Assembly (NCBI GenBank): GCA_046861395.1
Contig: JBHHUC010000025.1
Coordinates: 1-28,162 of the forward strand
Length of the DNA: 28,162 nt
Direction: 5' to 3'
Origin: Fidelibacterota bacterium
GTDB taxonomy: Bacteria; Fidelibacterota; Marinisomatia; Marinisomatales; JABMOV01
Under the pieces are notes generated by a model, which ran no database searches, was not told the DNA's origin, and saw only the letters and a list, made by a program, of their open reading frames with translations. The position numbers were made by a program, and so were the translations under genes. Below are positions 6,396 through 26,383 of this stretch, one piece after another (position 1 is the stretch's first letter; every line of letters starts with the position of its first letter).

Positions 6396-7409
6396 TTGTT
6401 TACCCTTCGGGAACTTGCTGACCTGGTGGGAGGGTCTGTTGTGGGAGATCCGCAGACACCTATCGGGGGGGTGTCTGAAATTCAACGCGGCCAACCGGGA
6501 ACCATTACCTTCCTGGCGAATCCCCGGTATAAACAATATCTGTCGGAAACCCGCGCTGCTGCCGTAGTAATTTCTTCCGATCATCCCGAACCGGCCATTC
6601 CGGCCATCCGGGTGAAAAATCCTCAGGCCGCCTTTGCTCGTATTCTGCAAGAATTTGCGCCGAACCGTCCCCGCCCTGCCGGGATCCATCCCACCGCCCT
6701 CATCCATGATACAGCCAAGCTGGGGAAAAATGTTGCCGTGGGTCCCTATGCCGTAATCGAAGCGAATGTATCTTTGGGCGATAACTGTACGGTTGGCACA
6801 CATAGTTTTCTCGGCGAATCCGTCATTATCGGAACGGGCACTGAACTCTATCCCCATGTCACGATTCATACCCGTTGCCGGTTGGGATCGGATTGTATCA
6901 TTCACAGCGGTACTGTGATCGGAACGGACGGGTACGGCTTTGTGGAAGAAGACGGTCAACATTTGAAAATTCCTCAGAACGGCGGAGTCCACATCGGTAA
7001 TCAAGTCGAGATGGGGGGCAACTGTACCATTGACCGTGGTACCATCGGCGATACGGTAATCGGAGACGGAACCAAGTTTGATAACCAGGTTCATGTGGCC
7101 CACAACGTAACCCTGGGCAGGGGTTGTCTGGTGACGGGACAGGTGGGTATCGCCGGAAGTGCGACCATAGGGGATTTCTGTATTTTTGCCGGTCAGGTAG
7201 GAGTTGCGCCGCACGTGACCATTGGCGACCGGGCCGTATTTGCGGCCAAGTCCGGCGTAACCAAATCTTTATCCGGAGGAAAAATATATGCTGGCATGCC
7301 GGCCCGGGAGATCCATGAGCAAAACCGGCGTGATGCTGTTTTTAGTCAGGTTAAACGCCTGAAAAAGCGTCTGGAAAAAATCGAAGCCAACCTTAACTTA
7401 GCTGTCTGA
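6396..7409 (+). CDS. lpxD: UDP-3-O-(3-hydroxyacyl)glucosamine N-acyltransferase
   Basis: TLRELA N-terminus, ITFLANPRY, hexapeptide repeats, IGTDGYGF, KIPQNG, TIDRG, KFDNQVHVAHNV; TTG start. Confidence 0.96.
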   Translation: MFTLRELADLVGGSVVGDPQTPIGGVSEIQRGQPGTITFLANPRYKQYLSETRAAAVVISSDHPEPAIPAIRVKNPQAAFARILQEFAPNRPRPAGIHPTALIHDTAKLGKNVAVGPYAVIEANVSLGDNCTVGTHSFLGESVIIGTGTELYPHVTIHTRCRLGSDCIIHSGTVIGTDGYGFVEEDGQHLKIPQNGGVHIGNQVEMGGNCTIDRGTIGDTVIGDGTKFDNQVHVAHNVTLGRGCLVTGQVGIAGSATIGDFCIFAGQVGVAPHVTIGDRAVFAAKSGVTKSLSGGKIYAGMPAREIHEQNRRDAVFSQVKRLKKRLEKIEANLNLAV

Positions 7410-7410
7410 A

Positions 7411-8817
7411 ATGAATCGCAATCAACGTACCATATCCTCTTCCGTGTCCTGCACCGGTGTGGGACTGCACACCGGAGTAGAATCGACCGTCACCTTTAAA
7501 CCGGCTGGTGAGAACTACGGCATCCGCTTTGTCCGCACCGATGTGGACGGCTGTCCCGAAATCAAGGCAGATATTCAGCATGTCGTGGATATTTCCCGCG
7601 GCACGACCATCGAAGAGCATGGTATTCGTGTGCATACGGTGGAACATGTTCTGGCTGCCATCTCCGGCTTGCGGCTGGATAATGTCCGGGTGGAGCTCAC
7701 AGGCAAGGAACCACCGGTCATGGACGGCAGCGCATTGGATTTCGTTACGGCCCTCCAGTCCGCCGAGATTCAGGAACAGGAAAAGGAACGGATCGTCCTG
7801 GAGATTGACGAAGCCATCACCTACACCGATCCTGAGCGCGGCGTGGATATTCATGTCCTGCCCTCCGACCAGTTCCGGGTTACCTTTATGGTGGATTATA
7901 AATTTCCTTCCCTGGGGACCCAATATACTGCCGTGTATAACATGGAAGAAAATTTCGCCCGGGAAATTGCTCCGGCCCGCACCTTTTGTTTTTTGAGTGA
8001 AATTGAGCATTTGAAAAAATCCGGTCTGATCAAAGGCGGTAATTTGGACAATGCGGTAGTCATCATGGATCGCAAGATTAATGATGAAGAAATTGAAAAA
8101 CTGAAATCTCTATTCGGAATTCGCCGTAAAATCATCCAGGGAGCCAATGGTATCCTGAACGGTAAGGAATTGCGGTTTCACAACGAACCGGTCCGGCATA
8201 AAGCATTGGATCTGATCGGTGACCTTGCCCTTTTGGGTTTGCCCATAAAAGGTCACGTCATTGCCGCCCGGAGCGGACATGCCGCCAACGTGGAACTGGT
8301 GAAACGTATCCGCAAAACCTATGAGAAAAAACTGATTAAACAGAAATATCAGAAATCTCCGACCGACGATTATATATTGGACATCAATGCCATCATGGCC
8401 CTAATGCCGCACCGCTATCCCTTTGTTCTGATTGACCGGATTATCGATATGGTTCCGGGTGAAAGCCTGACAGCCATCAAGAATGTTACCATCAACGAGC
8501 CGTTTTTTATGGGACACTTTCCCAATCAACCCGTAATGCCCGGGGTGTTGATTCTGGAAGCCATGGCCCAGGCCGGAGCCTTTCTGGTCCTAAACACCGT
8601 GGAAAATCCCATGACGAAAAATATGTTTTTCTCGGCTGTGGAAAAAGCCCGCTTCCGGGTTCCCGTGATCCCCGGCGATCAGATCCGGCTGGACATGAAA
8701 CTGGTGAAAATGCGTTTGGGAGCCGTCCGGCTAGCCGGGAAAGCTTATGTGGGAAACAGGATTGTGGCCGAAGCTCTCCTCATGGCCAATATTGTAGACC
8801 GGCCTGCCGGAGGCTGA
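7411..8817 (+). CDS. lpxC: Bifunctional LpxC (UDP-3-O-acyl-GlcNAc deacetylase) / FabZ (3-hydroxyacyl-ACP dehydratase) fusion
   Basis: LpxC part: QRTI, GVGLHTG, TVEHVLAA, ARTF, RHKALDLIGDL, GHAAN. FabZ part: MPHRYPFVLIDRI, GHFPNQPVMPGVLILEAMAQ. Confidence 0.97.
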   Translation: MNRNQRTISSSVSCTGVGLHTGVESTVTFKPAGENYGIRFVRTDVDGCPEIKADIQHVVDISRGTTIEEHGIRVHTVEHVLAAISGLRLDNVRVELTGKEPPVMDGSALDFVTALQSAEIQEQEKERIVLEIDEAITYTDPERGVDIHVLPSDQFRVTFMVDYKFPSLGTQYTAVYNMEENFAREIAPARTFCFLSEIEHLKKSGLIKGGNLDNAVVIMDRKINDEEIEKLKSLFGIRRKIIQGANGILNGKELRFHNEPVRHKALDLIGDLALLGLPIKGHVIAARSGHAANVELVKRIRKTYEKKLIKQKYQKSPTDDYILDINAIMALMPHRYPFVLIDRIIDMVPGESLTAIKNVTINEPFFMGHFPNQPVMPGVLILEAMAQAGAFLVLNTVENPMTKNMFFSAVEKARFRVPVIPGDQIRLDMKLVKMRLGAVRLAGKAYVGNRIVAEALLMANIVDRPAGG

Positions 8818-8819
8818 TT

Positions 8820-9593
8820 ATTTCTACCCGGATTCATCCGACTGCCCTTATTGGTAACAATGTTGTGCTGGGTGAACAGGTCCGCATCGGACCGTATTCC
8901 ATTATTGAAGACAATGTGACCATCGGGGATGAGACCACGATTGGGAATCATACCACCATTTGTCGTGGAACCACCATCGGTTCCCGCTGTACCATTTATC
9001 ATTCCTGTTCCGTCGGTGAAGCGCCCCAGGATTTGAAATATCGGGGCGAGCAAACCCATACCAAAATCGGTGACATGGTCATTATTCGTGAATTCGTAAC
9101 TATCAACCGAGGCACCGTTGCGTACGGTATTACCGAAATCGGTGATAATACCCTCCTCATGGCCTACGTTCACATCGCTCATGATTGTATTGTGGGACAC
9201 GATGTAGTGTTTGCCAACTTGGCGACCCTGGGCGGACATGTGGAAATCGGGGATTATGCTTCTCTGGGCGGAGGCGTGCTAGTACATCAGTTTACGCGTA
9301 TCGGAGCCCATGCCTTTATCGGCGGTGGATTTCGTGCCGTACAGGATGTACCGCCCTTTATTATGGCTCAGGGCGAACCGCTGCAATATGCTGGTATTAA
9401 CAGCGTCGGGTTACGCCGCCGGGGTTTCACTCCCGACGACCGCCGCGTCCTGAAAAAAATCTATCGTCTTTATTTTCGTTCTTCCCTATCCCGCCGGGCC
9501 GCTCTGGATGCCATTACATCGGAATTTCCGGACCATGAACTGGCCCACTCGGTACGGCAATTCATCGCCGCATCGGATCGTGGCATTATTTAA
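8820..9593 (+). CDS. lpxA: Acyl-ACP--UDP-N-acetylglucosamine acyltransferase; start probably ATT at 8820 (ORF track starts at GTG 8865)
   Basis: PQDLKY, IREFVTINRGT, HIAHDC, LGGHVEI, VHQF, QDVPPF, NSVGLRRRGF. The in-frame upstream codons give STRIHPTALI, the usual LpxA N-terminus. Confidence 0.95.
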   Translation: MSTRIHPTALIGNNVVLGEQVRIGPYSIIEDNVTIGDETTIGNHTTICRGTTIGSRCTIYHSCSVGEAPQDLKYRGEQTHTKIGDMVIIREFVTINRGTVAYGITEIGDNTLLMAYVHIAHDCIVGHDVVFANLATLGGHVEIGDYASLGGGVLVHQFTRIGAHAFIGGGFRAVQDVPPFIMAQGEPLQYAGINSVGLRRRGFTPDDRRVLKKIYRLYFRSSLSRRAALDAITSEFPDHELAHSVRQFIAASDRGII

Positions 9594-9598
9594 GCGAC

Positions 9599-10279
9599 AT
9601 GAACCTCCGCATTTTTTCCACTATTCTCCTACTCTCATTCTGTCATGCCCAATGGATTGATCTGGACCTGACTCCGGAATTGGGGACGGGATTCAAGGGG
9701 CAGGTCGCGCCACTGATTCAGGGGCTGGCCCTGGCGACAACCGTCAGCAGTACCCGTTCGGTTACTCACAATCATCGCATCGCTGTGAGTGGAACGATGA
9801 TCAATCTGCACAGCAATGCCTTCCGGGGATCATTTCCGCTGGTATCGGGACTGGTAGCGGCGGCGAAGAATCTGACATTGAGCGGTTCCCTGGCGGCCTT
9901 CCGGTCGGACAATGATATTGTACTGCACACGGGCTATGGTCTGGGCATTGTTCCCGGCGAATCGCCCTGGGAAATATCCCTCCATGTGGGCACACTCCAA
10001 GGAAGCCGAAACCTGCGTCTCCACAGTCTGCAACTGGCAGCGACCTACGGAACGTCCCTGGGATCGGTTCCTCTTGATTTCCAATTCGGCTTTATCGATA
10101 CCCGGGCCACCTTTTCCTTTCCCGGTGTGGCTGATGCACCAAAGACGCTGAACCGGAGGTTTTATGCCCTGCAACTGGCCACGGCAAAAGAATGGGGAAC
10201 AATATTGTTTGTGCCGAAACTTATCTGGCATCCGGAGGTTGTACTTCTTTCACTGGAAACACGATTGAATATTTATTGA
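9599..10279 (+). CDS. Hypothetical exported beta-strand-rich protein, possible small outer-membrane beta-barrel
   Basis: Signal peptide ending CHA|Q, alternating polar/hydrophobic strands, C-terminus LETRLNIY ending in an aromatic residue; TGATG overlap with dxr. Confidence 0.65.
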   Translation: MNLRIFSTILLLSFCHAQWIDLDLTPELGTGFKGQVAPLIQGLALATTVSSTRSVTHNHRIAVSGTMINLHSNAFRGSFPLVSGLVAAAKNLTLSGSLAAFRSDNDIVLHTGYGLGIVPGESPWEISLHVGTLQGSRNLRLHSLQLAATYGTSLGSVPLDFQFGFIDTRATFSFPGVADAPKTLNRRFYALQLATAKEWGTILFVPKLIWHPEVVLLSLETRLNIY

Positions 10280-13308: not shown

Positions 13309-13877
13309 GGTCGGATCATCTTCAGAGTTGAATGGTCTAATTTGAAAATACGTGAACCGGACGAGGCCGGTAAATGACCGCCATCAATCAAAAGATCAAT
13401 TTCAGATCCGAACTGCCGTTCAATTTCGTCGGGATCATTACAGGGAGCCTGACCGGTGCGGTTTACGCTGGTCGTCGTCAGGGGTTGCCCCAGCCGGGCG
13501 ACGATACTCAGGATGGACGGTTGCCGTGGAATTCGTACACCCAAAGAATGATCCGGACCCAAAAGGGAAGGATGGACAATTCCTGGTTTAACCGGGAAAA
13601 TTACGGTAGTAGCGCCGCCCAATTCGGTCAGGATTGTTGCCCATTCATCGGGAGTACATCGGGCCCAGGTACGGGCCGTGGCTGTATCCGGTGCAATGAC
13701 ACTCATGGGACCGGTTCGGCCCTTGATGCGGTTGATTCGTTGAATGGCCTCACCGTCGGTACCGATGACACCGAAGCCGTATAAGGTATCGGTGGGATAA
13801 ACCACTAAACCGCCTTTTTTCAGCGTTCCAACAGTATCGCTGACGATGGATGGATGGGAAAGGAGCCGACGATTCAT
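13305..13877 (-). CDS. tsaC: L-threonylcarbamoyladenylate synthase (Sua5/YrdC family, single-domain form)
   Basis: VVYPTDTLYG, IKGR, LGVRIP, PLTTTSVN, LLIDGG motifs. Confidence 0.9.
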   Translation of the reverse strand: MNRRLLSHPSIVSDTVGTLKKGGLVVYPTDTLYGFGVIGTDGEAIQRINRIKGRTGPMSVIAPDTATARTWARCTPDEWATILTELGGATTVIFPVKPGIVHPSLLGPDHSLGVRIPRQPSILSIVARLGQPLTTTSVNRTGQAPCNDPDEIERQFGSEIDLLIDGGHLPASSGSRIFKLDHSTLKMIRP

Positions 13878-14737
13878 GGTTGTGTTTTCCAGCGCCGATG
13901 GAACCAGAAATACTGTTCCGGATGGCGGCGGATGATGGTTTCCATTTCCGTAGTATAGCGCTGGGTCAATGCTGTCAGATCACGTTTTTCCGGTGGCGTG
14001 ATTATCTTGAAATGGATTTCATATTCGAAAGGTTGCCGCTGTATGCATACTCCCAGAATCAGTGGTGCTCCTGTGCGATAATGAAATACGGCTGTTCCCT
14101 TAGGCGTGGAGGAAGGCCGATTGAAAAAAGACACGAAAAGGCCTTTCCGGCGGGCATCCTGGTCACTCAGCAGGCAGAGAATCTGTCCTTGGCGAATGAC
14201 ATCAGTCATGGCTGTCGATCCGGCTTTTTGCCAGATCTGTTGGAGTCCGACGGCTTCGCGCCGTTCATAGAAAAAGCGATTGGCACCGGGATTATGTTGT
14301 TTCTGGACAACCGGTGCGGTGGGATAACCGTGTGACCCCAACCAGGCGCCCAAGATTTCCCAGGAACCGAAATGACCCGTTACAAGAATAGCACCCTTTC
14401 CCTGGTGCAGGGTAGCATCCAATTGGTCACGGCCCACGACGGTGATATGAATATCCTGCAGGGATTCGGGAAATCCAAGGAAGTGGATCAGGTTCCAGGA
14501 ATAGGATTGATAACAGGCGTGAGTGGTTTTTTTATACCAGGGCTCTGATTTCCCGGGAAAGGCTTTCCGTAGGTTTTCGAGTGCAGTATTCTTGCGCAGT
14601 GTCAGGACGAAGAAGAACAGTTTGGTGAGGCGCTTGGACCAGCGGTAACGGGACGCGGGATGCAGTTTGGTCATAACGGCATGAAGACAGGAAAGAACCC
14701 TGTAGGACATGGTTTTTGTGGCACTGTCAGAAATCAT
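13874..14737 (-). CDS. Lipid A secondary acyltransferase, LpxL/HtrB family
   Basis: NLRKAFP, LVTGHFGSWE (HX4E), LLSDQD, FVSFFNR, IRRHPEQYFWFHRRWKT. Alternative start ATG at 14710. Confidence 0.9.
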   Translation of the reverse strand: MISDSATKTMSYRVLSCLHAVMTKLHPASRYRWSKRLTKLFFFVLTLRKNTALENLRKAFPGKSEPWYKKTTHACYQSYSWNLIHFLGFPESLQDIHITVVGRDQLDATLHQGKGAILVTGHFGSWEILGAWLGSHGYPTAPVVQKQHNPGANRFFYERREAVGLQQIWQKAGSTAMTDVIRQGQILCLLSDQDARRKGLFVSFFNRPSSTPKGTAVFHYRTGAPLILGVCIQRQPFEYEIHFKIITPPEKRDLTALTQRYTTEMETIIRRHPEQYFWFHRRWKTQP

Positions 14738-15123: not shown

Positions 15124-16098
15124 ATGAAAGTAGGGGTAATCGGTGTCGGACATCTGGGACAGCATCATGCCCGGCATTATGCCGCCATGCCAACGGTTGA
15201 TCTGGTAGGTGTCTATGACACGGACAGGCAGCGAGCCGAAGAAATCGCCGGGAAAACGGGATCAAAAGCATACCGAACCATGACGGACCTAATGGCCGCC
15301 TGTGACGCGGTTTCCATTGTAACTCCGACCCGTTATCATGCCGAAGTGGCTACGACCTGTCTCCAACAAGGATTACATGTATTCATTGAGAAACCGATTA
15401 CAAAAACGGTGGCCGAAGCCAATCACCTGTTATCCCTGGCCAAAGACAGGCAAGCCATCATCCAGGTGGGACATATCGAACGGCTGAACCCGGCTCTCAT
15501 GGTCCTGCAGGATGTGGATCTGGCTCCGAAATACATCGAGGTACAGCGGTTGGCGCCGTATACCACACGGGGGACGGATGTCCCAGTGGTGCTGGATTTG
15601 ATGATTCATGATATTGACATTATCCTGGCCTTGGTAAAATCCCAGGTAAAAAATATCCGTGCCAGCGGCGTTTCCATCATGACCGATTCGGTTGATATCG
15701 CCAATGCCCGCATCCGCTTTGAAAACGGTACGGTAGTGAACATGACTTCCAGCCGTATTGCCAAGGATAAGGTGCGAAAGTTTAAAATTTTTCAGCAAAA
15801 TCTCTATGTGACAATTGATTTCCTCTTGGGCTTGACAGAAATCTACCGGGTCCGGGATAAATCCCCGGATAAAAACCAGTCACTGTTGACGGCACCGCTG
15901 GACAGCAATGGTCGCCAGCGGGAAATAGTTTATGATAAACCGCCGGTAAAGTCCTTCGATGCCCTGCAAATGGAATTAACCAACTTTGTTCAGACGATCC
16001 AGGGGCATGCCCGGCCCATTGTAGACGGCCAGGCCGGTCGCGATGCCCTGGAACTGGCCATCACCATTCATGACATGATTATAGAAGACATACACTGA
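15124..16098 (+). CDS. Gfo/Idh/MocA oxidoreductase, GnnA-like UDP-GlcNAc 3-dehydrogenase
   Basis: GVIGVGHLG..HA, HVFIEKP, QVGHIERLNPA, R.TDVPVVLDLMIHDIDII, DIANARI.F..G, SRI; heads the lpxB-lpxK operon. Confidence 0.85.
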   Translation: MKVGVIGVGHLGQHHARHYAAMPTVDLVGVYDTDRQRAEEIAGKTGSKAYRTMTDLMAACDAVSIVTPTRYHAEVATTCLQQGLHVFIEKPITKTVAEANHLLSLAKDRQAIIQVGHIERLNPALMVLQDVDLAPKYIEVQRLAPYTTRGTDVPVVLDLMIHDIDIILALVKSQVKNIRASGVSIMTDSVDIANARIRFENGTVVNMTSSRIAKDKVRKFKIFQQNLYVTIDFLLGLTEIYRVRDKSPDKNQSLLTAPLDSNGRQREIVYDKPPVKSFDALQMELTNFVQTIQGHARPIVDGQAGRDALELAITIHDMIIEDIH

Positions 16099-16099
16099 T

Positions 16100-16672
16100 A
16101 TGGATATTCGCAAATTCTTTTTTTCCAACCGCAGTTACACTCCCATCCCTCTGGCCCTCCTTATTATTTATAATGCCGATCCCATCTGGCATCTGCTTCC
16201 TATCGGGGCGTTTCTGCTTGCAGCGGGAGAATGGCTGCGGCTGAATGCAGTACGCTATGCCGGTGGGGCTACACGCACCATGAAAGTGGGTGCGCCATCC
16301 CTGTGCACATCTGGACCGTACGCCTATGTCCGGAATCCACTTTACGTGGGGAATATGATCATATACACGGGCATTGCATTTCTGGCCGGTGGTCAGGCCC
16401 TCTGGTTCATGCTAGTGCTGACATGGTTGTTCTTTGGGGTACAATATGGGTTAATCGTCCATCTGGAAGAAGAGACGCTGGATAAACTGTTTGGCAGTGA
16501 TTACGCCACCTACAAAGAATTTATCCCGGCTCTGATTCCCCGTTTCACACCCTGGTCCGGCCGCGACGACCGTGAACCGGCCTCCTGGCGCAAGACCTTC
16601 AAAACCGAAAAGCGGACGCTGCAAAATATCCTGTTTATCCTGATCATCCTCTGGTTACGTGTAACCATCTGA
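16100..16672 (+). CDS. Isoprenylcysteine carboxylmethyltransferase (ICMT/Ste14/PEMT) family membrane methyltransferase; candidate LmtA-like lipid A phosphate methyltransferase
   Basis: LCTSGPYAYVRNPLYVGN and EEETL...FGSDY..Y...IPALIP motifs, several TM segments. The LmtA-like role is inferred from context. Confidence 0.85.
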   Translation: MDIRKFFFSNRSYTPIPLALLIIYNADPIWHLLPIGAFLLAAGEWLRLNAVRYAGGATRTMKVGAPSLCTSGPYAYVRNPLYVGNMIIYTGIAFLAGGQALWFMLVLTWLFFGVQYGLIVHLEEETLDKLFGSDYATYKEFIPALIPRFTPWSGRDDREPASWRKTFKTEKRTLQNILFILIILWLRVTI

Positions 16673-16721
16673 GCCGGAATGCCCCTTCCTGACGTTTTCG
16701 TTCAAATCCGAAACAGCCCCC

Positions 16722-17852
16722 ATGGCGGATAAATCCCTGTCGTTATATTTTGTAGCCGGTGAAGCATCCGGCGACCTGCACGGCGCACGCCTCATGGCCG
16801 CCTTGTGGGCCAGACTCCCCCGGGTTACGTTTCATGGTCATGGTGGTGATAAAATGAAAGCCGCCGGACTGGAATTACAGTATCACAGCGATGATTTATC
16901 ACTGATGGGCTTTACCGAAGTGATCAAACATTTGCCGTTTATGATGAAAGTCATGGGTGAAACGGTAAACGCCATCGCTGAGTTACAGCCGGATCGTATC
17001 ATTCTCATTGATTATCCCGGTTTCAATCTGCGCCTGTTGAAACGGATTGCCGCCCTGAACATCCCGGTAACATATTTTATTCTGCCTCAGGTCTGGGCCT
17101 GGAAGGAAAAACGTCTGGAAATCCTGAAAACTCATGTCGATCAGGCCATTAGTATTTTTCCCTTTGAACCGGCCTGGTTCCGGGAGCGGGGGCTGGTAAC
17201 GGATTATGTGGGGCATCCCCTGGTAGACCGGGAAATCACCGGAGAACAAATCCAGGCCTTTCTGACCCGTCATGAATTGGATTCCCGTAAACCCATTCTG
17301 GTATTATTGCCGGGCAGTCGGCAACAGGAAGTGGATCGCCACTGGCCCGTTTTTATCAATACCGCACAGGAATTAATGCGGCGCAGGCCGGATCTGCAAT
17401 GTGTAGTAGGACAGGCTCCGGGAGTGGAACTTCCGCTCCTGCCACCAACGATCCGGCGGGAAATCACTGACATCCCTGCCGCCATCCATCAGGCCACGGC
17501 GGCTCTGGCAGCGTCCGGAACTGTCACCCTGGAAGCCGCTTTGCTGGATACTCCCGTGGTGGTCTGTTATCGTCTGTCGCCCCTGAGCTGGTGGCTGGCG
17601 AAGCGGCTGGTCCGTGTTCCATACGCTTCCATGGTCAATCTCATTGGCAATAAGGACATTGTCCCGGAATTTCTGCAGGCCAGCATGAAAGAAGATAACC
17701 TGGTGGCTGCTCTGGAACCCCTGTTGACCGGGGAATCCAGGGACAGGAAGATGATGCTGGCGGATTTTGAAACGGTTCGCCGGGCGCTGGGAATGCCCGG
17801 TGTCTATGACCGGATCGCCGATACCATTGCCAGACGGCTGGTTGAGTCATGA
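16722..17852 (+). CDS. lpxB: Lipid-A-disaccharide synthase
   Basis: VAGEASGDLHGA, IDYPGFNL, PQVWAWK, IFPFE, VGHPL, LLPGSRQQE, ASGTVTLEAAL. Confidence 0.97.
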   Translation: MADKSLSLYFVAGEASGDLHGARLMAALWARLPRVTFHGHGGDKMKAAGLELQYHSDDLSLMGFTEVIKHLPFMMKVMGETVNAIAELQPDRIILIDYPGFNLRLLKRIAALNIPVTYFILPQVWAWKEKRLEILKTHVDQAISIFPFEPAWFRERGLVTDYVGHPLVDREITGEQIQAFLTRHELDSRKPILVLLPGSRQQEVDRHWPVFINTAQELMRRRPDLQCVVGQAPGVELPLLPPTIRREITDIPAAIHQATAALAASGTVTLEAALLDTPVVVCYRLSPLSWWLAKRLVRVPYASMVNLIGNKDIVPEFLQASMKEDNLVAALEPLLTGESRDRKMMLADFETVRRALGMPGVYDRIADTIARRLVES

Positions 17853-18481
17853 ATACGGTCCGGGTGATTCTGGCCAAATGGTTGTTGCTTGTTCTGCACA
17901 AGACCTGTTGCTGGCGGGTGGATAATGAAGCGGTGATCGCCCGTGCGTTGCAGGAGAGAAAGTCGGTAATCATTGCCGTCTGGCATGGACGGTTACTGGC
18001 TCCCTTTTTCCATTTTTCCCAACGGGGATATTATGCCCTTGCCGGAACCCATGCCGACGCCGAACTGATTTCACAGATGGCATTTCGCATGGGTTGGAAA
18101 ATGATTCGCGGTTCCAGCAGCAAAGGCGGCAGCGCCGCCTTTAAGAATATTGTCAAAACATTACGACAACCAGGCACCGTTCTCTACATTACTCCGGACG
18201 GACCAAAAGGCCCGGCGCTGGAACCGAAGTCAGGCACAATCCGCGCCGCACGGTTGACCCGCGCCGTCATTATTCCCATCAGTGCCAGTGCCACACGATC
18301 CTGGGGCTTTACCAATTGGGACACATTTTATGTCGCGAAACCCTTTTCCCGGATTGAACTCCTTTTCGGTGAGCCGTTTGAAATTCTGGCGGATATGTCC
18401 GAAGCAGAGGGAATCATGACACTTAAAACCCGGCTGGACCAGTTATCCCGGGAAGCGGACCGAAGGGCCGGAGTTCTTTAG
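17849..18481 (+). CDS. DUF374 / lysophospholipid acyltransferase family protein (LpxJ-like)
   Basis: WHGRLL, H.DAELI, IRGSSSKGG, ITPDGPKGP, WDTF...KPFS; ATGA overlap with lpxB. Confidence 0.85.
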   Translation: MNTVRVILAKWLLLVLHKTCCWRVDNEAVIARALQERKSVIIAVWHGRLLAPFFHFSQRGYYALAGTHADAELISQMAFRMGWKMIRGSSSKGGSAAFKNIVKTLRQPGTVLYITPDGPKGPALEPKSGTIRAARLTRAVIIPISASATRSWGFTNWDTFYVAKPFSRIELLFGEPFEILADMSEAEGIMTLKTRLDQLSREADRRAGVL

Positions 18482-18485
18482 GACA

Positions 18486-19475
18486 ATGCGATTATTAAAT
18501 ACCATTATAGTGCCATTGGCTGGTATTTATGGCTGTATCATGACCGTGCGGAATATTCTTTATGACCGGGGCTGGTTTCCAGTGCGAACTCTTCCGGCTG
18601 TGGTAATCAGTATTGGCAACATTACCATGGGCGGCACAGGCAAGACTCCGGTTACCGTAGCCCTGGCGATGTGGCTCTGTGAAAAAGGGTATAAGGTTGC
18701 GATTCTCAGTCGGGGCTATGGTCGGAAAACACGGGGAACGTTCATCGGATCGGAAAAGTCCACCTGGCAGGAACTGGGCGATGAACCCTCCATGATGCGG
18801 GATATCCTGGATGATGTCCCCATTGTAGTGGATGAAAACCGTTTCCGTGGCGGCCGGATTCTTGTGGATATATTTCAGCCGGACGTTATTCTGCTGGACG
18901 ATGCCTTTCAACACCGCTCCCTGCACCGCGATTTGGATTTACTGGTAATCAGTGCTGGTGATCGACAGGAGAATTATTCCCTGTTTCCGGCCGGTCGTCT
19001 GCGGGAAGCTTGGCGCCACGCCCACCGGGCCGATGCCATATTATTGACCAAGTCAGAATGGTATGACCTGCCCCAGGATGTTGACAGGAAAATCTCCGCT
19101 CTGTCCCGGCCCGTATTTCAACTCACAGCCGAGACGGTCCTCCAGTCTCCTTACGGACCCATTGAATCTTGTGATGCTCCCTTTATTTTGGTCTGTGCCA
19201 TTGCCGATCCCGAATCCTTCCGCCGGGCGGCCGGAAGGAAATATCTGGACATTGCGAAGGAGTTTATTTTTCCCGATCATTATCATTACACCCGGGCGGA
19301 TGTAGATAAGATTGAAGCCTGGGATGATACCGGTAAAACGGCCGGCATCCTGACGACGGAAAAGGATTATGTCAAACTCAAACGGTTACGTCTCAGCAAA
19401 CCACTCTATGTTCTGACGCTACGGTACAATCTACCAGTGGAACTGCAGGACGTGATTGTAAAAGCGTTATCCTGA
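18486..19475 (+). CDS. lpxK: Tetraacyldisaccharide 4'-kinase
   Basis: IGNITMGGTGKTP, LSRGYG, GDEP, LLDDAFQH, PAGRLRE, FPDHYHY, TTEKDYVKL. Confidence 0.96.
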   Translation: MRLLNTIIVPLAGIYGCIMTVRNILYDRGWFPVRTLPAVVISIGNITMGGTGKTPVTVALAMWLCEKGYKVAILSRGYGRKTRGTFIGSEKSTWQELGDEPSMMRDILDDVPIVVDENRFRGGRILVDIFQPDVILLDDAFQHRSLHRDLDLLVISAGDRQENYSLFPAGRLREAWRHAHRADAILLTKSEWYDLPQDVDRKISALSRPVFQLTAETVLQSPYGPIESCDAPFILVCAIADPESFRRAAGRKYLDIAKEFIFPDHYHYTRADVDKIEAWDDTGKTAGILTTEKDYVKLKRLRLSKPLYVLTLRYNLPVELQDVIVKALS

Positions 19476-19477
19476 TC

Positions 19478-22400
19478 TTACATCTGGGAGATACCCCAGG
19501 CGAACATTACACCGACGAAGGTGAGCATCAGAGGCCAGGACGTATTGACGAATTGCCTGGCGCTGGGATCTTCAAAGACATGAATCTGGAAGGAATGAGT
19601 GGTGGTGGCACCATGTTCGTCAATAACAAGAATGACGACCTCATTGGGACCTAGTTGATTGTTCCGGGGTTTCCACGTCAAACCGCCGGTGCGGGGGTTG
19701 AATTTGGCATATTTTGGCAGACGAATCGGACGCAGCGTGATTTCATCCTTGTTTAAATCCTCCGCCGTCAGTTTATAGCGGTATTCATAACCGGTCAGGG
19801 CCACTGGTTTTGGCTTTGACAGCACCGTAGGAGCAATATTCACAAACACTTTTTGCTGCTGTACATCTTCCCGGTAGCCGTCGGATACTTTCACTTCAAA
19901 GAGATGGGTGTTGATCTGTGAAGCCTGGGGTACCCAAACCAGTTTACCGTCCCGACTGAGCTGCATGCCCTGGGGACCTTTCACCAGTTCATACTCCAGG
20001 TAGGCATCCTCATTGGCATCTTCCACCTGGATCTGGTAACGGTATACTTCATCCACCTGAGCGATGGCCGGGGGACGGGATACGATGGTCGGCGGGTGAT
20101 TGACATAAATTTCGAATGTTTGTTCATCCTTGGCATAGCCGTCGGAAACCACCAGGGTTACTTTCTGTTTATTCACCTGGTCCTTCGTTGGTGTCCAGTG
20201 GATGGTTCCTGTTAGTTCGTCAATTATCATTCCGTCGGGGAAATCCACCAGAGAATAGCGCAACATGGAGCGTTTTTCCACTACCACTTTCGGCGGTGTT
20301 CCCTGGTTGCCATGGAAAAATTCCCACAGCACGTCCTTTATTTTTACGGTCCGTTCATCTATTGTCATCACGATGACATAGAGACGGTCGTCCTCATAGA
20401 AGATGGAATGAACATATTTTTTCAGGTTTAGACGTGAAATCTGATCGTCTTCCGGCAGGGTGGGATCGGTAAGATATACGGTTTCCGCATGGTTCCAGTC
20501 CCCGATATAGCGCTCAATATTTTCGCGATATACATCATCGGAAATATTTACGGCATAGAGCCGCGCATTGGCAGCGTCCATGACCTTGACTGTTTTCCTG
20601 AAGGGCAGAAGCGTTGCCCGGTTACGATCGCTGGTCATGATTTCGTGCTTGTATTCTTCCCCCACCGTGGCCTGTAACTGAGGGATGGAAACAATCTTGA
20701 TGGGAGCGTTTACAAAGAATTCCGCCTCGAAGGACCGAATCGTATGGCCGTCGGAGATTTCCATTTTCAATTGGGAGAAATCAAGTTGATTTCCGGTGGG
20801 ATCCCAGCGCAGGCGACCGGAGTAGGGATCCATTCGCATCCCTTCCGGCATGGTAATGGCGGTAAAAGTGAGTTCATCGAATTCATTGGGATCGTGCGCT
20901 TCGATCTGAAAATCCCAGGTATTGCCCAGGTTGATCATGGTCATGGGGGGCGGAATGGCATCCAGGACTGGGGGATGGTTTACGAATATGGCCACAAACT
21001 GGGTATCGGTGGCGACACCCTGCCGGGCCACGATGGCAACGGTCTGGGTATCAATCTGTGTTTCATCCGGTGTCCATTCGATGATTCCGTCGGTGGAAAT
21101 TTCCATGCCGTCCGGCGGTTGGTAGAGTAAAACGGTAACCGGCTGGTCAAGATTTTGATGCCAAACCTCTGTTTCATAGCGGTAAGGTTGATTGACAGCA
21201 CCGGACAGAGGCGGTTTGGAAATAATCCGGACCCCGGCCCGCGCGAAAAGCTTGAATTCCTGAGCCGTACGATCAAATCCGTCCGTGACCACCAAGCGGA
21301 CATCATAGACATCCACATGGGAGCTGTCGGTGGTCCAGATGATGCGACCGGAATCCAGGACCATGCCTTCCGGGGCCACTTCCAGATCCAATTGCAACAC
21401 ATCATCAATATTGCGGTCCCGCACGACGGGTTCGTATTCAAAGACTGAATTGACCACGAATTCCGTACCTTCGGGTTGGGATAAAAACACTGGCGGGTCA
21501 TTCACATAAACCCATAGATATTCATCGTAGCCTTCCAGTTCGGGCTTAACGGAATAGGACATCAAAGAATCATTTTCCGTCGGTTCCGTGACTACCGTTT
21601 CACCCACCTGCATTTCCACGTGATAAGCCAGCTGAAAGGCCCCCAGTTGCGTTTCATCGGGTGTCCATAAAATGGATTTCGTATCATAATGGAAATACAT
21701 CCCTTTCGGTGGCGGCTGCAACCAGCGGAAAGAATAGAAATTTTCGCCTTCCTCTTCGGGAATGGTGTAGGCAAAGGCCTGATTGACCGGCAGAACATGT
21801 CGCGGTAGAACACCGGGAGGCAGGGCTTGTCCCGTGGTCCGTGCCGGTCGGGGGACTTCCGGCAGAGAAAATTGGGTGTCGGGCATTTCGGGAAATTCTG
21901 CCAGCAGATCCACTTGTTCCCGGGGAATGTCTCCCGCCAAGGGCAAGGGGGGTGCAATTTCTTCCGGTCCACGGCCCAATTCCGTCATGAATACGGCACT
22001 GGTTTCGCCATCCCAGCCGGCGCCTATCACCGTGCCCAGGTACAACCCCATCTGCGTCAGTGGCAGGGTGGCAAATACCTGCGTTTTATTGGATTCATCC
22101 TCCAGGGAAAAATAATCGATTCGGGCGCCGGTGGCCGTATCGGCACTGGCAACCAGGGTCATCAAATTCATGGCTCCGGATACCAGTAGTAAATCGTCCA
22201 GCTTATCCTGGTTGAAATCGCCGACGTTGAGGTCGGACAAAGGACCGCCGTCATAGGACAGCTGGTCAATGACGGTTGTTTCCGGTGTCGGTGTGAGTGC
22301 CAGTAGATGTCCCGACTTAAACGGCAGCAGCATATCCTTGAACCCGTCATTGTCCCAATCGCTTTCCACGATTTTACGGGGTAGAAGCTGATCCAGCCCG

Positions 22401-23155
22401 GGTATGGTTTTCGTCACCAAGGGACCGGGTTCAAATGTTTCTTCATTATTGTAGAAGGTCTGGGCTTTCAGGACGTTTCCTTCGGGGGAAAACAGGATGA
22501 TGTCGTCACGGAAGTCCCGGTCATAATCCAGCGCGGCCACGAACACGAAGCCGGCCCCAGTCCGGAAAATGGCTGGATCAATCATGGTTCTTTCATAAAG
22601 GTCACCTTCGGCGTGCCGATCAATGAGGACCACCGACCGCAGCGGGGCACCCAGCGATGCGGCAATTTCCTGGTCGCCGTCACCGTCCACGTCCAGTAAT
22701 TGGAAATTCTGGCAGCGGATAAATGGTTGTTTCGATGCCAGGCGGAGTGATGCCGCCGGTTCTTCCTGGAAGCCGACTTCTCCCACGGGATAGATAAATA
22801 CAATGGGCTGCAGCAGGTCGCGATCATGTTCGCCCGACACATTCATGATGGTGATCAGTTCCGGTTCGCCATTGCCATCCATGTCACCCAGCATGGCATC
22901 TACAAAATGTCCCAGCAAACCGTCGGGTGAAGCCACTTCCCAGATCAAATCCTGATACCCGTCCTTGTCAAGTTCATAGTATCGCAGGAAGGAGGGTTGT
23001 CCCCGTTCTCCTTGCTTTGCTTCCAGCGCCAGAAATTCCAGTTGTCCGTCTTGGTCCAGATCGTAGGTACCGGTCATATGGAGGATTTGCAAATCATCAG
23101 CCTGCAATAATCCCAGAAGCGAGATAATAACCAGGAAACGCCCGGACCTTGTCAT
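19478..23155 (-). CDS. Large exported protein: FG-GAP/VCBS beta-propeller, Pro-rich linker, seven putative Ig (He_PIG/cadherin-like) domains, C-terminal TM helix
   Basis: Signal peptide; DLDQDG, DMDGNG, DVDGDG, DYDRDF, DWDNDG, DFNQDK motifs; seven W-x-P/T..Q-type repeats with N.PP starts and V.DG ends; hydrophobic C-terminus WPLMLTFVGVMFAWGI. Confidence 0.85.
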   Translation of the reverse strand: MTRSGRFLVIISLLGLLQADDLQILHMTGTYDLDQDGQLEFLALEAKQGERGQPSFLRYYELDKDGYQDLIWEVASPDGLLGHFVDAMLGDMDGNGEPELITIMNVSGEHDRDLLQPIVFIYPVGEVGFQEEPAASLRLASKQPFIRCQNFQLLDVDGDGDQEIAASLGAPLRSVVLIDRHAEGDLYERTMIDPAIFRTGAGFVFVAALDYDRDFRDDIILFSPEGNVLKAQTFYNNEETFEPGPLVTKTIPGLDQLLPRKIVESDWDNDGFKDMLLPFKSGHLLALTPTPETTVIDQLSYDGGPLSDLNVGDFNQDKLDDLLLVSGAMNLMTLVASADTATGARIDYFSLEDESNKTQVFATLPLTQMGLYLGTVIGAGWDGETSAVFMTELGRGPEEIAPPLPLAGDIPREQVDLLAEFPEMPDTQFSLPEVPRPARTTGQALPPGVLPRHVLPVNQAFAYTIPEEEGENFYSFRWLQPPPKGMYFHYDTKSILWTPDETQLGAFQLAYHVEMQVGETVVTEPTENDSLMSYSVKPELEGYDEYLWVYVNDPPVFLSQPEGTEFVVNSVFEYEPVVRDRNIDDVLQLDLEVAPEGMVLDSGRIIWTTDSSHVDVYDVRLVVTDGFDRTAQEFKLFARAGVRIISKPPLSGAVNQPYRYETEVWHQNLDQPVTVLLYQPPDGMEISTDGIIEWTPDETQIDTQTVAIVARQGVATDTQFVAIFVNHPPVLDAIPPPMTMINLGNTWDFQIEAHDPNEFDELTFTAITMPEGMRMDPYSGRLRWDPTGNQLDFSQLKMEISDGHTIRSFEAEFFVNAPIKIVSIPQLQATVGEEYKHEIMTSDRNRATLLPFRKTVKVMDAANARLYAVNISDDVYRENIERYIGDWNHAETVYLTDPTLPEDDQISRLNLKKYVHSIFYEDDRLYVIVMTIDERTVKIKDVLWEFFHGNQGTPPKVVVEKRSMLRYSLVDFPDGMIIDELTGTIHWTPTKDQVNKQKVTLVVSDGYAKDEQTFEIYVNHPPTIVSRPPAIAQVDEVYRYQIQVEDANEDAYLEYELVKGPQGMQLSRDGKLVWVPQASQINTHLFEVKVSDGYREDVQQQKVFVNIAPTVLSKPKPVALTGYEYRYKLTAEDLNKDEITLRPIRLPKYAKFNPRTGGLTWKPRNNQLGPNEVVILVIDEHGATTTHSFQIHVFEDPSARQFVNTSWPLMLTFVGVMFAWGISQM

Positions 23156-25521
23156 TAGCGTTGTCCTGTCGTGTCCGAAACGGTGGAGTCGGCGGGGGTT
23201 GATACCGTATCCGGAAGGGCCGTTTCAGACGGCTCAGGAACGGTCAGAGTATCGCTGGCGGGTAGTTTTGCTGCAGGCAAGGTGGTCGCGGCACTGTCCG
23301 GTTCCATTATCGCAGTAGAATCAGGAACGGTCATCGTTGGTGCCGGGATATTATCGATCTTTTGTGGCGGTTCCTGAAGTTCCTCATCCTTGGGTGGTTC
23401 GGGCAGACGCAGCGGAATGGGGGTAACGGGAATGGGTAAGGACGGGGGATGGTCGGCATATTCGCTGCGGGTAGTGAGCAGCCGCGGAATAAATTCCCCG
23501 TTGAGATCCATTTCCACGATGACCTTTTGGGACAGATTTTCCTTCACTTTGATTTCACCGCGGATTTCGGCCAGCGTCCCTTCTTTGAGGTAGAGACTAA
23601 GCCAGTGGTTGGGCTGGATGGGACTGAGCATCATCACAGAAGCATTCAGAACCTGAGGAGCTGCCGATTCTCCGAAGGCAAATACCAGGGTCTGTCCGGC
23701 GGAATCCATTTTCATCGTGGCAGGAAATCCTTCAAAAAAATATTCCGGGTAATTGTAGAAATGGGGATCCCAGGATTCGGGGCTGAAAGACTGGGGAACG
23801 GTATCCATTTGCGGTGTAACCGACATATACATGACATTGGATTCAAAATCATGGATAATGGTCAGCGTCGTCATGTGGGACAGGGATGTATCCGGTGTAA
23901 AATATCGGAAGGTCACGGACGCATCACGCTGGACCAGATTCAGGTCGGCCATGATATTGTGTCCCACCAGTTTTTTATCCGTGCCGGGGATGGCATTGGA
24001 TTCATGCACCATGATCCCGAAGGGCGATTCGCCTTCGAACTGATACCGGTTATTGGCCAGTTCGGTGGGAGTGGTGACGATGAGGGAGAACATACGCGGT
24101 TCGGCCTGGACAAAGGCCAGACTGTCGAACGTGATGGCTGTATCCGGGGCCGTGGTATCCAGGACGACTATTGCGAAACGGGTTGTTGTGGTTTTTACGA
24201 TGGGTGTAAGCTGGAGACGGGCTCCGTATTCATCATCATGAGAAACGAGTTTTTCTCCCATTTTTTCTTCATAAACAAAAGAAAAGAGATGCCAACCGGT
24301 CTGGTCCTTTTCCGGCATCCAGGTAATGTTCCCGGCATCGGGATTGAACCGCACACCTCGCGGGGGCTGGGCTTGCCAGGTAAAACTGTAGAAGGAAGCC
24401 GCCGTATCGGTTCGGGGACTGTATGCTAGTGAATCACCCAGTCGTAGGGTGTCGGTGAAATCCACCATCCAACGTAGTGAATCTTCCGTAGCTACTGTTT
24501 CCAATTCCGGGACAGGAACTTCCGCGGCCGGAACGGGCGGGGATTGCCAGCCGGCCAGGGCCTGACTTAATGTTGTTTCATTGCCGGGCCATAGGAAGGG
24601 ACTATTCATATCGGTTGGGTTCAATTCCAGGGTGCGGTCCACCCATTCCAACGTCATCACGGTTTGATTATCAAAGGGAATGAGAATTTCTTCGGTCTGA
24701 TCATGATTCAAATCGGAACGGAGGAGACCGGGACCAATCAGGTGAGTACCGGTGGGTGTGATGAGAACTTTTTCGTCCAAGGCATTGCCGCCGGTAAAAG
24801 GAAACAGGGCTGTTTTCAGGAGATTGGCTTCGGCGCTGAATAGGAGGACAAACCGTTCCTCCCCGGATTGCAGGGCAGTGGCATAGACTGGTCCGTACCC
24901 GCTGGAGATAAAGGGAGAAGAAAAAGTACGAATGGTAGTAGCGGAAAGGACTCCGTTGCTGATATCCAGCTGCAGCGTAGTAGCCCGGCGTTCGGGTGTT
25001 CCTTCGGCCAGCACCAGCCAGACCCGTTCTTCATGCCGAACGATGTCGAATCCGGTAGCCCGGATTCGTTCCCGATCCGCCAGGGGAGCGGAGAAGGTAA
25101 GGGGAGTTGCAGAAAAGCTATCAGCCGTGCCGGGAAAGACCAGGAGCCAGGGATCATCACCGGGCCCCAGTCCCATCACGGAGCGGCTCAGGGCAACAAT
25201 ATCCATGCGTCCATCGCCGGTTACGTCAAATAATTTGACTTCGGACAAGCGGGCCGAACGGGACGGTTGAAAGGCATACACCCATAAAACGCGGAAAGTC
25301 CCGCCCTGATTCTCAACATACTTCAGGGTGGAATCTCCGAGTTGCGGACTCCAGAACAGATACTGGTGCTCATTGCGGGGATTTCGCTCCACGTAGGTAT
25401 TGGCGGCCTGAACCGGGTGAATTCCCAGAATGAAGAAGAAACAGACCAAAACGGGGATCACCCCGGAGGAGTGAATGAAAGACAAACTTTTTTTATTCAT
25501 AGAATTTGACCGGAAAATCAT
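23155..25521 (-). CDS. Exported protein paralogous to the downstream gene: partial FG-GAP propeller, one Ig-like domain, unknown domain, Pro/Thr/Ser-rich tail
   Basis: Signal peptide ending VQA|A (alternative start ATG 25500), DVTGDGRMD, DLNHDQTEE, FYSFTWQAQPPRG..ITWMPEKDQ; TAATG overlap with the next gene. Confidence 0.8.
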   Translation of the reverse strand: MIFRSNSMNKKSLSFIHSSGVIPVLVCFFFILGIHPVQAANTYVERNPRNEHQYLFWSPQLGDSTLKYVENQGGTFRVLWVYAFQPSRSARLSEVKLFDVTGDGRMDIVALSRSVMGLGPGDDPWLLVFPGTADSFSATPLTFSAPLADRERIRATGFDIVRHEERVWLVLAEGTPERRATTLQLDISNGVLSATTIRTFSSPFISSGYGPVYATALQSGEERFVLLFSAEANLLKTALFPFTGGNALDEKVLITPTGTHLIGPGLLRSDLNHDQTEEILIPFDNQTVMTLEWVDRTLELNPTDMNSPFLWPGNETTLSQALAGWQSPPVPAAEVPVPELETVATEDSLRWMVDFTDTLRLGDSLAYSPRTDTAASFYSFTWQAQPPRGVRFNPDAGNITWMPEKDQTGWHLFSFVYEEKMGEKLVSHDDEYGARLQLTPIVKTTTTRFAIVVLDTTAPDTAITFDSLAFVQAEPRMFSLIVTTPTELANNRYQFEGESPFGIMVHESNAIPGTDKKLVGHNIMADLNLVQRDASVTFRYFTPDTSLSHMTTLTIIHDFESNVMYMSVTPQMDTVPQSFSPESWDPHFYNYPEYFFEGFPATMKMDSAGQTLVFAFGESAAPQVLNASVMMLSPIQPNHWLSLYLKEGTLAEIRGEIKVKENLSQKVIVEMDLNGEFIPRLLTTRSEYADHPPSLPIPVTPIPLRLPEPPKDEELQEPPQKIDNIPAPTMTVPDSTAIMEPDSAATTLPAAKLPASDTLTVPEPSETALPDTVSTPADSTVSDTTGQR

Positions 25522-25588: not shown

Positions 25589-25783
25589 GGAAAAGACCGC
25601 AGCCGACCGAAGATCGAATCTGACATTTATTAGCAGTGGCGACAGTGATCGGGAAAAGGTTCGTGAACCGGGTCTTCCGGTATGGTAGCAGGATTTCAGC
25701 CCCCTTACTTTATTCCTTGATTTTCGTCGTTAATTCTGCCAATTTGGACCCGATTCGTTTTCATAAATCGGGAGTAATTGATC

Positions 25784-26383
25784 ATGTCCAATGAAATCAA
25801 GTCAGGTTTTGGCTATCTGATTCCGGCTACTGCCCTGGTGGGATATGTCGTATCATTGTTTGCGAACTTATACCTGGTCAGTATCATTTTCGCTGTCCTG
25901 GGCATACTGGGATGGTTTTTATATGCCTTGGTGATGGAAATCAAACTGCCACAGGTCATGGGGAATATGATTATTGTCTTTTCTTTACTCATTGGCGTGG
26001 GCATCTTCCTGGCCTACGGCCTGGAACAGGATATTTTCGGCGGATATCTCTTTAAAATGGAAGGATCGGTCTTTGCCTTGTTAACATTGCTTTTTGGTGT
26101 CCTGGGGGGAATTCTGTTCAATCGCAGTCGCGCTCTCGAATCACCGGCACTATCGGAGGAAGACCGGACGGCGGTGCAATCGGCCCTGGAAAATGCTGAA
26201 AACGGATCGGGCGACCCGAAAGTGATTATCGTGAAGCAGGAACAGGAACAGGAAAAAGAACCGCAACCGGTGTACGATCCGTCGCTGTACGGTTATCCTC
26301 CCGAAGATTATTACGATGATGATGACGACGAAGAATGGGAATATGAAGATGAAGAATGGGACGAGGAAGACGAGGAGGATTGA
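25784..26383 (+). CDS. Hypothetical membrane protein, 4 TM helices plus a very acidic C-terminal tail
   Basis: SD GGGAG at 25770-25774 fits ATG 25784 better than TTG 25778; four hydrophobic segments; tail EDYYDDDDDEEWEYEDEEWDEEDEED. Confidence 0.8.
   Translation: MSNEIKSGFGYLIPATALVGYVVSLFANLYLVSIIFAVLGILGWFLYALVMEIKLPQVMGNMIIVFSLLIGVGIFLAYGLEQDIFGGYLFKMEGSVFALLTLLFGVLGGILFNRSRALESPALSEEDRTAVQSALENAENGSGDPKVIIVKQEQEQEKEPQPVYDPSLYGYPPEDYYDDDDDEEWEYEDEEWDEEDEED

Follow-up and report, generated by a model that had tools for sequence, protein, structure and literature searches.

In a Marinisomatota bacterium, a conserved late lipid A gene cluster carries gnnA and a gene for a putative LmtA-subfamily methyltransferase

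We observed a conserved late lipid A gene cluster with two extra genes, gnnA and a gene for a membrane methyltransferase, in a Marinisomatota bacterium. The cluster lies on a contig of 28,162 nucleotides (nt; JBHHUC010000025.1), the whole of which is called the window here. The methyltransferase resembles LmtA, the lipid A Kdo2 (Kdo, 3-deoxy-D-manno-oct-2-ulosonic acid) 1-phosphate O-methyltransferase of Leptospira interrogans, and judging from its relatives and neighbours it is probably a dispensable lipid A phosphate O-methyltransferase that works in the same manner. The five open reading frames (ORFs) are all on the plus strand, with spacings of 1, 49, -4 and 4 nt, and their coordinates, together with the Pfam and NCBIfam searches, bore out the five tightly packed genes described in an initial annotation of this DNA. 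All five were above the Pfam cut-offs (GFO_IDH_MocA, PEMT/ICMT, LpxB, DUF374 and LpxK). As the named homologues were those of Fidelibacterota/Marinimicrobia (Marinisomatota), the host could be placed in SAR406, within the Fibrobacteres-Chlorobi-Bacteroidetes (FCB) lineage that the initial annotation had supposed. The genome (G000) is of 2.37 Mb and 94% complete, and lpxB is present in it as a single copy. The genes of the cluster are as follows.

15124..16098, plus strand: GnnA orthologue (Gfo/Idh/MocA family; predicted NAD-dependent UDP-N-acetylglucosamine (UDP-GlcNAc) 3-dehydrogenase), 324 amino acids (aa); PF01408, PDB 7bvj
16100..16672, plus strand: LmtA-subfamily membrane methyltransferase of the isoprenylcysteine carboxylmethyltransferase (ICMT) fold, 190 aa; PF04191/PF04140; likely lipid A phosphate O-methyltransferase
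16722..17852, plus strand: lpxB, lipid A disaccharide synthase, 376 aa; TIGR00215 at 276.5 bits (cut-off 190.25)
17849..18481, plus strand: lpxJ, DUF374 late acyltransferase, 210 aa; PF04028 at 74.5 (cut-off 26.8); 4-nt overlap with lpxB
18486..19475, plus strand: lpxK, lipid A 4'-kinase, 329 aa; TIGR00682 at 192 bits (cut-off 91.95)

The methyltransferase had orthologues in 32 of 40 relatives of this bacterium (46-72% identity), and in each of the 32 the gene lay between gnnA and lpxB. The order gnnA-methyltransferase-lpxB was contiguous in 29/29 loci examined and also in the other three relatives (G020 and G024, and G005 by coordinates). Since it was contiguous in all the orthologue-bearing relatives, the arrangement is beyond chance. 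In G024 (C41, L213) the methyltransferase gene was split over two frames, the frameshift marking either a pseudogene or an assembly error. The remaining eight relatives had no methyltransferase; gnnA directly abutted lpxB in six of these, and lpxB was unassembled in two. We found the gene in 84 of 151 genomes across the phylum, and its loss followed families. As several lineages have cleanly deleted the gene between gnnA and lpxB, methylation would be an optional step, and not part of a core pathway as the initial annotation had proposed. The streamlined genomes of family f13 (~1 Mb; L207, L208, L308-L310, L235, L240) kept gnnA-lpxB-lpxJ-lpxK without the methyltransferase, and carried a long-branch methyltransferase paralogue elsewhere, near rmuC and pntB.

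The linkage to lpxB, which the initial annotation had expected to be conserved, was also seen in a GTDB scan, of which we examined the best 80 of 597 confirmed stretches, a sample dominated by Ignavibacteria. The gene was directly before lpxB in 53 of these loci (in Ignavibacteria-type Bacteroidota, Kryptonia, KSB1, Fidelibacterota and Delongbacteria), beside other lipopolysaccharide (LPS) genes in 11, and at cut contig ends in three. The positions beside other LPS genes were after lpxA in Latescibacterota, after lptF/G in six Poribacteria, after gnnA in two Calditrichota, and after lpxB and an LpxB-like gene in two Vulcanimicrobiota-type loci. In addition, a representative search yielded three proteins (P0208, P0214 and P0273) in which the methyltransferase domain was fused to an LpxB-like glycosyltransferase; a search of the 90% database for longer fused forms turned up just one unrelated protein, which is weak evidence. 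The sole annotation of the family is 'isoprenylcysteine carboxylmethyltransferase family protein', and it has 3,056 representatives at E <= 1e-10 and 186 at 1e-30. In the Ignavibacteria-type genomes, an MtnX-like HAD phosphatase was encoded just upstream of the methyltransferase (42 of the best 80 loci, e.g. L083:7153-7887). It is a possible lipid A or core phosphatase, and it had no homologue in G000. Distant members of the family followed a flippase-like gene in Synergistaceae, or genes for GDP-mannose dehydratase/epimerase in Vulcanimicrobiota types (L136, L141-L147 for both), and these neighbours hint that the outermost members may have other glycolipids as substrates.

The first gene of the cluster very probably encodes GnnA, as the initial annotation had suggested; the orthology is seen directly, and the activity is predicted from it. 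When the dehydrogenase was compared with the PDB, 7bvj was matched at E 2.6e-66 over residues 1-316, and the runner-up, at 2.6e-15, was 51 orders of magnitude away. The 7bvj structure is identified as GnnA in excerpts of a preprint (bioRxiv 10.1101/2024.11.05.622173; the papers cited below by PMC number are likewise cited from excerpts). The GxGxxG, EKP, GHIxR, RLAP and DLMIHD motifs aligned with those of GnnA, and the archaeal UDP-GlcNAc 3-dehydrogenase model NF040723 was by far the best in NCBIfam (205.5 bits, short of the cut-off of 450). An orthologue of gnnA was present in 141 of the 151 phylum genomes, and the gene adjoined lpxB even in genomes of ~1 Mb.

The GnnA/GnnB system of Acidithiobacillus ferrooxidans (PDB 7bvj/7bvk) is thus matched here in its dehydrogenase, by the structure and the aligned motifs, and the gene again stands beside lpxB, but no adjacent or canonical gnnB accompanies it, the candidate partner being a RifK/BtrR-type DegT protein. 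The initial annotation had looked to a gnnB elsewhere in the genome; the canonical WbpE-type gene was not found in G000 (94% complete), and the RifK/BtrR-type protein was present instead. It is the sole full-length DegT-family protein of this genome (413 aa, unlinked, C86:13535-14773), and among solved structures it is nearest to BtrR-type and 3-amino-5-hydroxybenzoate (AHBA) synthase/RifK enzymes. RifK aminates a 3-keto UDP-sugar. Among 66 DegT proteins the RifK/BtrR-type formed a clade of its own (15 rows, FastTree support 100), conserved at 55-72% across the order and only ~31% identical to the WbpE-type, and RifK-type was the only full-length DegT match in at least 17 of 41 genomes.

We further counted the two types in the 141 gnnA-positive phylum genomes, using a family f13 protein as the canonical WbpE-type query and thresholds of E <= 1e-70 (RifK-type) and E <= 1e-62 (WbpE-type). 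RifK-type alone was found in 62, WbpE-type alone in 63, both in five and neither in 11. In the host's own order without family f13 (n=67), the corresponding numbers were 55, 5, 4 and 3. This near mutual exclusion fits non-orthologous displacement, and on balance the unlinked RifK/BtrR-type protein is favoured, by a little, as the substitute for GnnB. Unlinked gnnA and gnnB are normal (PMC5644692, PMC3342949), also where the diamino nature of the lipid A is proven (PMC5644692). For family f13, with its small genomes, a combination of gnnA with a lack of DegT proteins was ruled out, as a WbpE-type gene was found in 4/4 tested.

Since the canonical WbpE-type gnnB was not found in G000, the predicted amide linkage rests on a putative substitute aminotransferase, and several observations count against it. 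The RifK-type gene had no conserved LPS neighbours in the relatives. The counts of the two types come from kin that are not independent, and proteins of other DegT subfamilies fall outside the thresholds (in G281 there is a second DegT). The WbpE-type genes were often in O-antigen-like loci (5/20 beside a WbpB-like gene) and may serve the O-antigen. One genome (G292, two contigs, 95% complete) had gnnA and the methyltransferase and no full-length DegT. Together with the missing WbpE-type gene and the 11 gnnA-positive genomes that had neither type, G292 would suit a dehydrogenase that has no true GnnB and serves another UDP-sugar C3 reaction, the lipid A being an ordinary ester/amide glucosamine disaccharide (GlcN-GlcN). 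We consider this unlikely, as one type or both were present in 130 of the 141 gnnA-positive genomes, gnnA was kept in the lpxB cluster even in ~1-Mb genomes, and the two genes can be unlinked where diamino lipid A is proven. A 2,3-diaminoglucose backbone is overall the likely one.

As for the methyltransferase, the best NCBIfam model was that of LmtA (LmtA_Leptospira, TIGR04571), and this model ranked the clade of the methyltransferase first in 6/6 genomes. LmtA methylates the lipid A 1-phosphate (PMC4402001). The comparison was made with twelve Bacteroidota proteins of ~250 aa that scored 150-257 bits on TIGR04571 over the whole model (LmtA-like proxies), and the controls were 42 paralogues, the nearest other PEMT/ICMT proteins in the same genomes. 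A profile built from the 12 proxies gave 57-118 bits with the 42 clade members and at most 56 with the paralogues, while the clade profile gave 109-124 bits with the proxies and at most 81 with the paralogues. An hhalign comparison of clade and proxies covered 177 columns, as against 92 for a control family. Six residues (R11, R47, R59, N85, Y116 and E170) were invariant in 42/42 clade members and 12/12 proxies; the 42 paralogues carried 0-3 of them. The three clade-invariant arginines may bind phosphate. Two tandem ICMT-fold domains were seen in four proteins (P0147, P0151, P0166, P0172), one of the domains carrying most of the six residues.

The AlphaFold2 model of the methyltransferase (pLDDT 96.9) has the ICMT fold (against 5vg9, Z 13.0, root-mean-square deviation 2.1, 133 residues aligned), and the hidden Markov model (HMM) match to 5vg9 was at E 4.5e-8. 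ICMT (PDB 5vg9/5v7p, 4a2n) and MddA share with it this fold and the C-terminal motifs that bind S-adenosylmethionine (SAM; GPY..RxPxY and EE..L...FG..Y..Y). However, the scores on their models were far below the cut-offs (ICMT NF040696, 28.4 bits with a cut-off of 160; MddA NF045656, 27.5 with a cut-off of 270), and the methyltransferase has in addition the N-terminal FxxR and GxTR and a C-terminal helix with E170, which in the model lies outside the ICMT match.

The proxies were found in 12 of 151 genomes of a Bacteroidota-centred sample (L178-L189), with one match at E <= 1e-9 per genome and none together with the short form; 11 of the 12 have gnnA. They predict methylated lipid A in some Bacteroidota. 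In the same sample gnnA was present in 42 of 43 genomes with an LmtA-HMM match of at least 50 bits, compared to 57 of 108 others, these being kin and not independent. This co-occurrence echoes the pairing of diamino backbone and methyl group in Leptospira (PMC10248169) and in Mesorhizobium loti (PMC4103559). The 2023 paper on Leptospira calls lipid A methylation unique to that genus (PMC10248169), and the initial annotation likewise knew of it only there; for M. loti, nevertheless, a diamino lipid A is reported in which the 4'-phosphate is methylated in part, with no gene assigned (PMC4103559). The lipid A of M. loti MAFF303099 would resemble the one predicted here in its diaminoglucose backbone and methylated phosphate; it differs in that the 4' methylation is partial, C1 bears galacturonic acid, and the authors' BLAST found no lmtA (PMC4103559). 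We also considered the rhizobial plasmid matches as the M. loti lipid A methylase, and found no support, these genes being paired with cmoA.

The likeness to LmtA thus comprises the ICMT/Ste14 fold, the best NCBIfam match, the co-occurrence with GnnA and the six diagnostic residues common to the methyltransferase and the full-length LmtA-like proteins, and the methyltransferase is closer to these proteins than to PEMT, ICMT or MddA. Several findings weigh against carrying this over to function. The TIGR04571 score was 58.4 bits, with a cut-off of 325, and the protein has 190 aa, against the 252 positions of the model and the ~250 aa of LmtA; the match covers model positions 85-199 (other clade members, about 8-207). 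The comparison used Bacteroidota proxies, LmtA-like by sequence only, in place of Leptospira LmtA; these are closer to LmtA than the 190-aa protein, which is 33% identical to one of them over 164 residues. A careful tree recovered both the clade (95/89) and the group of LmtA-like proteins (99/91) and gave no support for their union (53 of 111 rows used, bootstrap not fully settled); quick trees joined the two (SH-aLRT 92), with long-branch paralogues inside. The methyltransferase is encoded within the lpxB cluster or joined to an LpxB-like domain; the genes of the proxies, in contrast, had no lpx neighbours (0/8 long loci read). A third group, of ~245 aa, carries 4-6 of the six residues and sits behind cmoA and not LPS genes. 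Because of this group, the six-residue motif marks a subfamily and fixes no substrate. Finally, 13 of the best 80 GTDB loci had no LPS gene within 2.5 kb. We conclude that the methyltransferase is, on sequence, a probable member of the LmtA subfamily, yet not a formal TIGR04571 LmtA, so that the LmtA likeness put forward in the initial annotation stands as kinship, and falls short in model score, in length and in the existence of closer homologues of ~250 aa.

The ~245-aa group was found in Bacteroidota and on chromids of rhizobia, where its gene immediately follows one for a CmoA-like protein (identity of 54-58% to annotated CmoA; L224-L226 in G184, G104 and G194, L344:3215-4735, L345:3213-4735), and the group is a candidate carboxy-SAM-dependent lipid carboxymethyltransferase.

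With regard to the substrate, it is likely that the methyltransferase acts on the LPS anchor. The methyl group could then go elsewhere than to a lipid A phosphate, i.e. to the Kdo carboxyl as a methyl ester, to an inner-core phosphate, or to a sugar added by the fused LpxB-like glycosyltransferase. The linkage to LPS genes and the LpxB-like fusion would fit this equally, the ICMT fold methylates carboxylates, and the Poribacteria gene follows lptF/G and is not by lpxB. On the other hand, the closest characterised relative targets the 1-phosphate (PMC4402001), and in the relatives kdtA has a locus of its own, where no methyltransferase gene adjoins it; we regard these targets as rather improbable. 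Slightly less probable still is the methylation of a glycerophospholipid, a polyprenyl phosphate or another envelope lipid, with the gene kept in the lipid A cluster just for co-regulation. The best Pfam family of the methyltransferase is PEMT, which agrees with such a substrate, as do the 13 loci with no LPS gene nearby and the related arginine-rich groups in non-LPS contexts. Against it, the adjacency to lpxB persists while the other neighbour varies (gnnA in Marinisomatota/KSB1, the HAD phosphatase in Ignavibacteria), the gene elsewhere follows lpxA or lptF/G, the domain is fused to an LpxB-like one, and the generic PEMT-like paralogues are without the diagnostic residues. Carboxymethyl transfer from carboxy-SAM, which the cmoA-paired ~245-aa relatives may perform, is most improbable here, since no CmoA-family match at E <= 1e-10 was seen in five genomes searched (including G000), of which four carry the methyltransferase, and tblastn with cmoA gave just weak matches of 112-118 residues.

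We therefore return to a lipid A phosphate as the probable acceptor of the methyl group. In the proposed pathway, GnnA would oxidise UDP-GlcNAc at C3 to UDP-3-keto-GlcNAc, and the 3-keto sugar would be aminated, likely by the unlinked RifK/BtrR-type DegT; given the oxidation by GnnA, the lipid A would have a 2,3-diaminoglucose backbone and carry its chains in amide linkage. LpxA/C/D, an LpxH-like hydrolase, LpxB, LpxK, KdtA, LpxJ and LpxL, the genes for which were seen, would assemble the lipid. The methyltransferase, in the inner membrane, would methylate a lipid A phosphate with SAM as the donor, and the anionic oxygen so esterified on the cytoplasmic face would leave the lipid with less negative charge. 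Tentatively, with a little under an even chance, the target is the 1-phosphate; the 4'-phosphate is an improbable target. More doubtful than the single parts is the joint reading, an old and widespread phosphate-methylated diaminoglucose lipid A across FCB and neighbouring phyla (Marinisomatota, Ignavibacteria/Kryptonia, KSB1, Calditrichota, Latescibacterota, Poribacteria and Vulcanimicrobiota), made by a short LpxB-coupled LmtA-subfamily enzyme, with the RifK/BtrR-type displacing GnnB in the sampled SAR406 order. As part of this reading, and equally conjectural, the displacement would amount to a second, non-orthologous route to UDP-GlcNAc3N. In the literature we searched, with most subscription papers and bioRxiv supplements outside the search, neither this lpxB-linked methyltransferase family nor a RifK-type GnnB was described, and no lipid A structure was reported for Marinisomatota or Ignavibacteria; a cultured member of the phylum has LPS, for which the excerpts give no lipid A structure (PMC11652737).

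The other lipid A functions were also examined. The inventory in the initial annotation was right for the five genes of the cluster, and overlooked a divergent lpxL-family gene and the early genes of the pathway in the same window:

13874..14737, minus strand: divergent LpxL/HtrB-family late acyltransferase; PF03279 at 148.4 bits
14738..15123, no strand: AT-rich intergenic region of the lpxL/gnnA divergent pair, from its sequence a probable shared promoter region
6396..9593, plus strand: lpxD, lpxC-fabZ fusion and lpxA (early lipid A genes); NCBIfam above cut-off for all three

A promoter/terminator scan of the lpxL-gnnA intergenic region gave weak sigma-70-like sites only (9-of-12), with no evidence of function. 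LpxJ, identified as such already in the initial annotation, has the PF04028 domain and the residues W45/H46, D70, D117 and W157/D158, a motif match to those essential in Rickettsia LpxJ (PMC6148475; W60/H61, D86, D132 and W172/D173 in that protein, the last pair matched by position only). It thus resembles LpxJ of Rickettsia, Helicobacter and Campylobacter in family and in the essential W-H and Asp motifs, and unlike these it would act on an amide-linked backbone. LpxA was about equally similar to O-acylating and N-acylating structures. Outside the window the genome encodes kdsA and an LpxH-like metallophosphoesterase, the latter below cut-off, and no LpxI was found in the genome. An apparent absence of KdtA was ruled out: kdtA was present in 40/40 relatives, and in G000 a cut copy lies at a contig edge (C131:3-764), severed by the contig end and overlooked by the N-terminal Pfam search.

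On the minus strand, 19478-23155 and 23155-25521 encode two large secreted FG-GAP/He_PIG Ig-repeat proteins that converge on lpxK, and the position of the 1225-aa Ig-repeat protein beside lpxK is kept in many Marinisomatota loci. Besides the LpxC-FabZ fusion, there is a stand-alone FabA-like dehydratase (27508-28062, minus strand), which is near the cluster in relatives too (L106, L108, L123). The ORFs at 1753-2514, 9599-10279 and 25778-26383 had no Pfam match; the last of these has a strongly acidic C-terminal tail.

If the methyltransferase does act as proposed, lipid A methylation would be a common and evolutionarily switchable trait of abundant marine and subsurface bacteria, and not a peculiarity of Leptospira. 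This would bear on the charge of the outer membrane under low cations or cationic peptides, on how innate immunity recognises LPS from the environment, and on lipid biomarkers. A large family so far annotated just as isoprenylcysteine carboxylmethyltransferase would gain a function, and a small monofunctional lipid A methyltransferase would serve as a tool for LPS engineering. For the missing GnnB step, the RifK-type DegT provides a named candidate.

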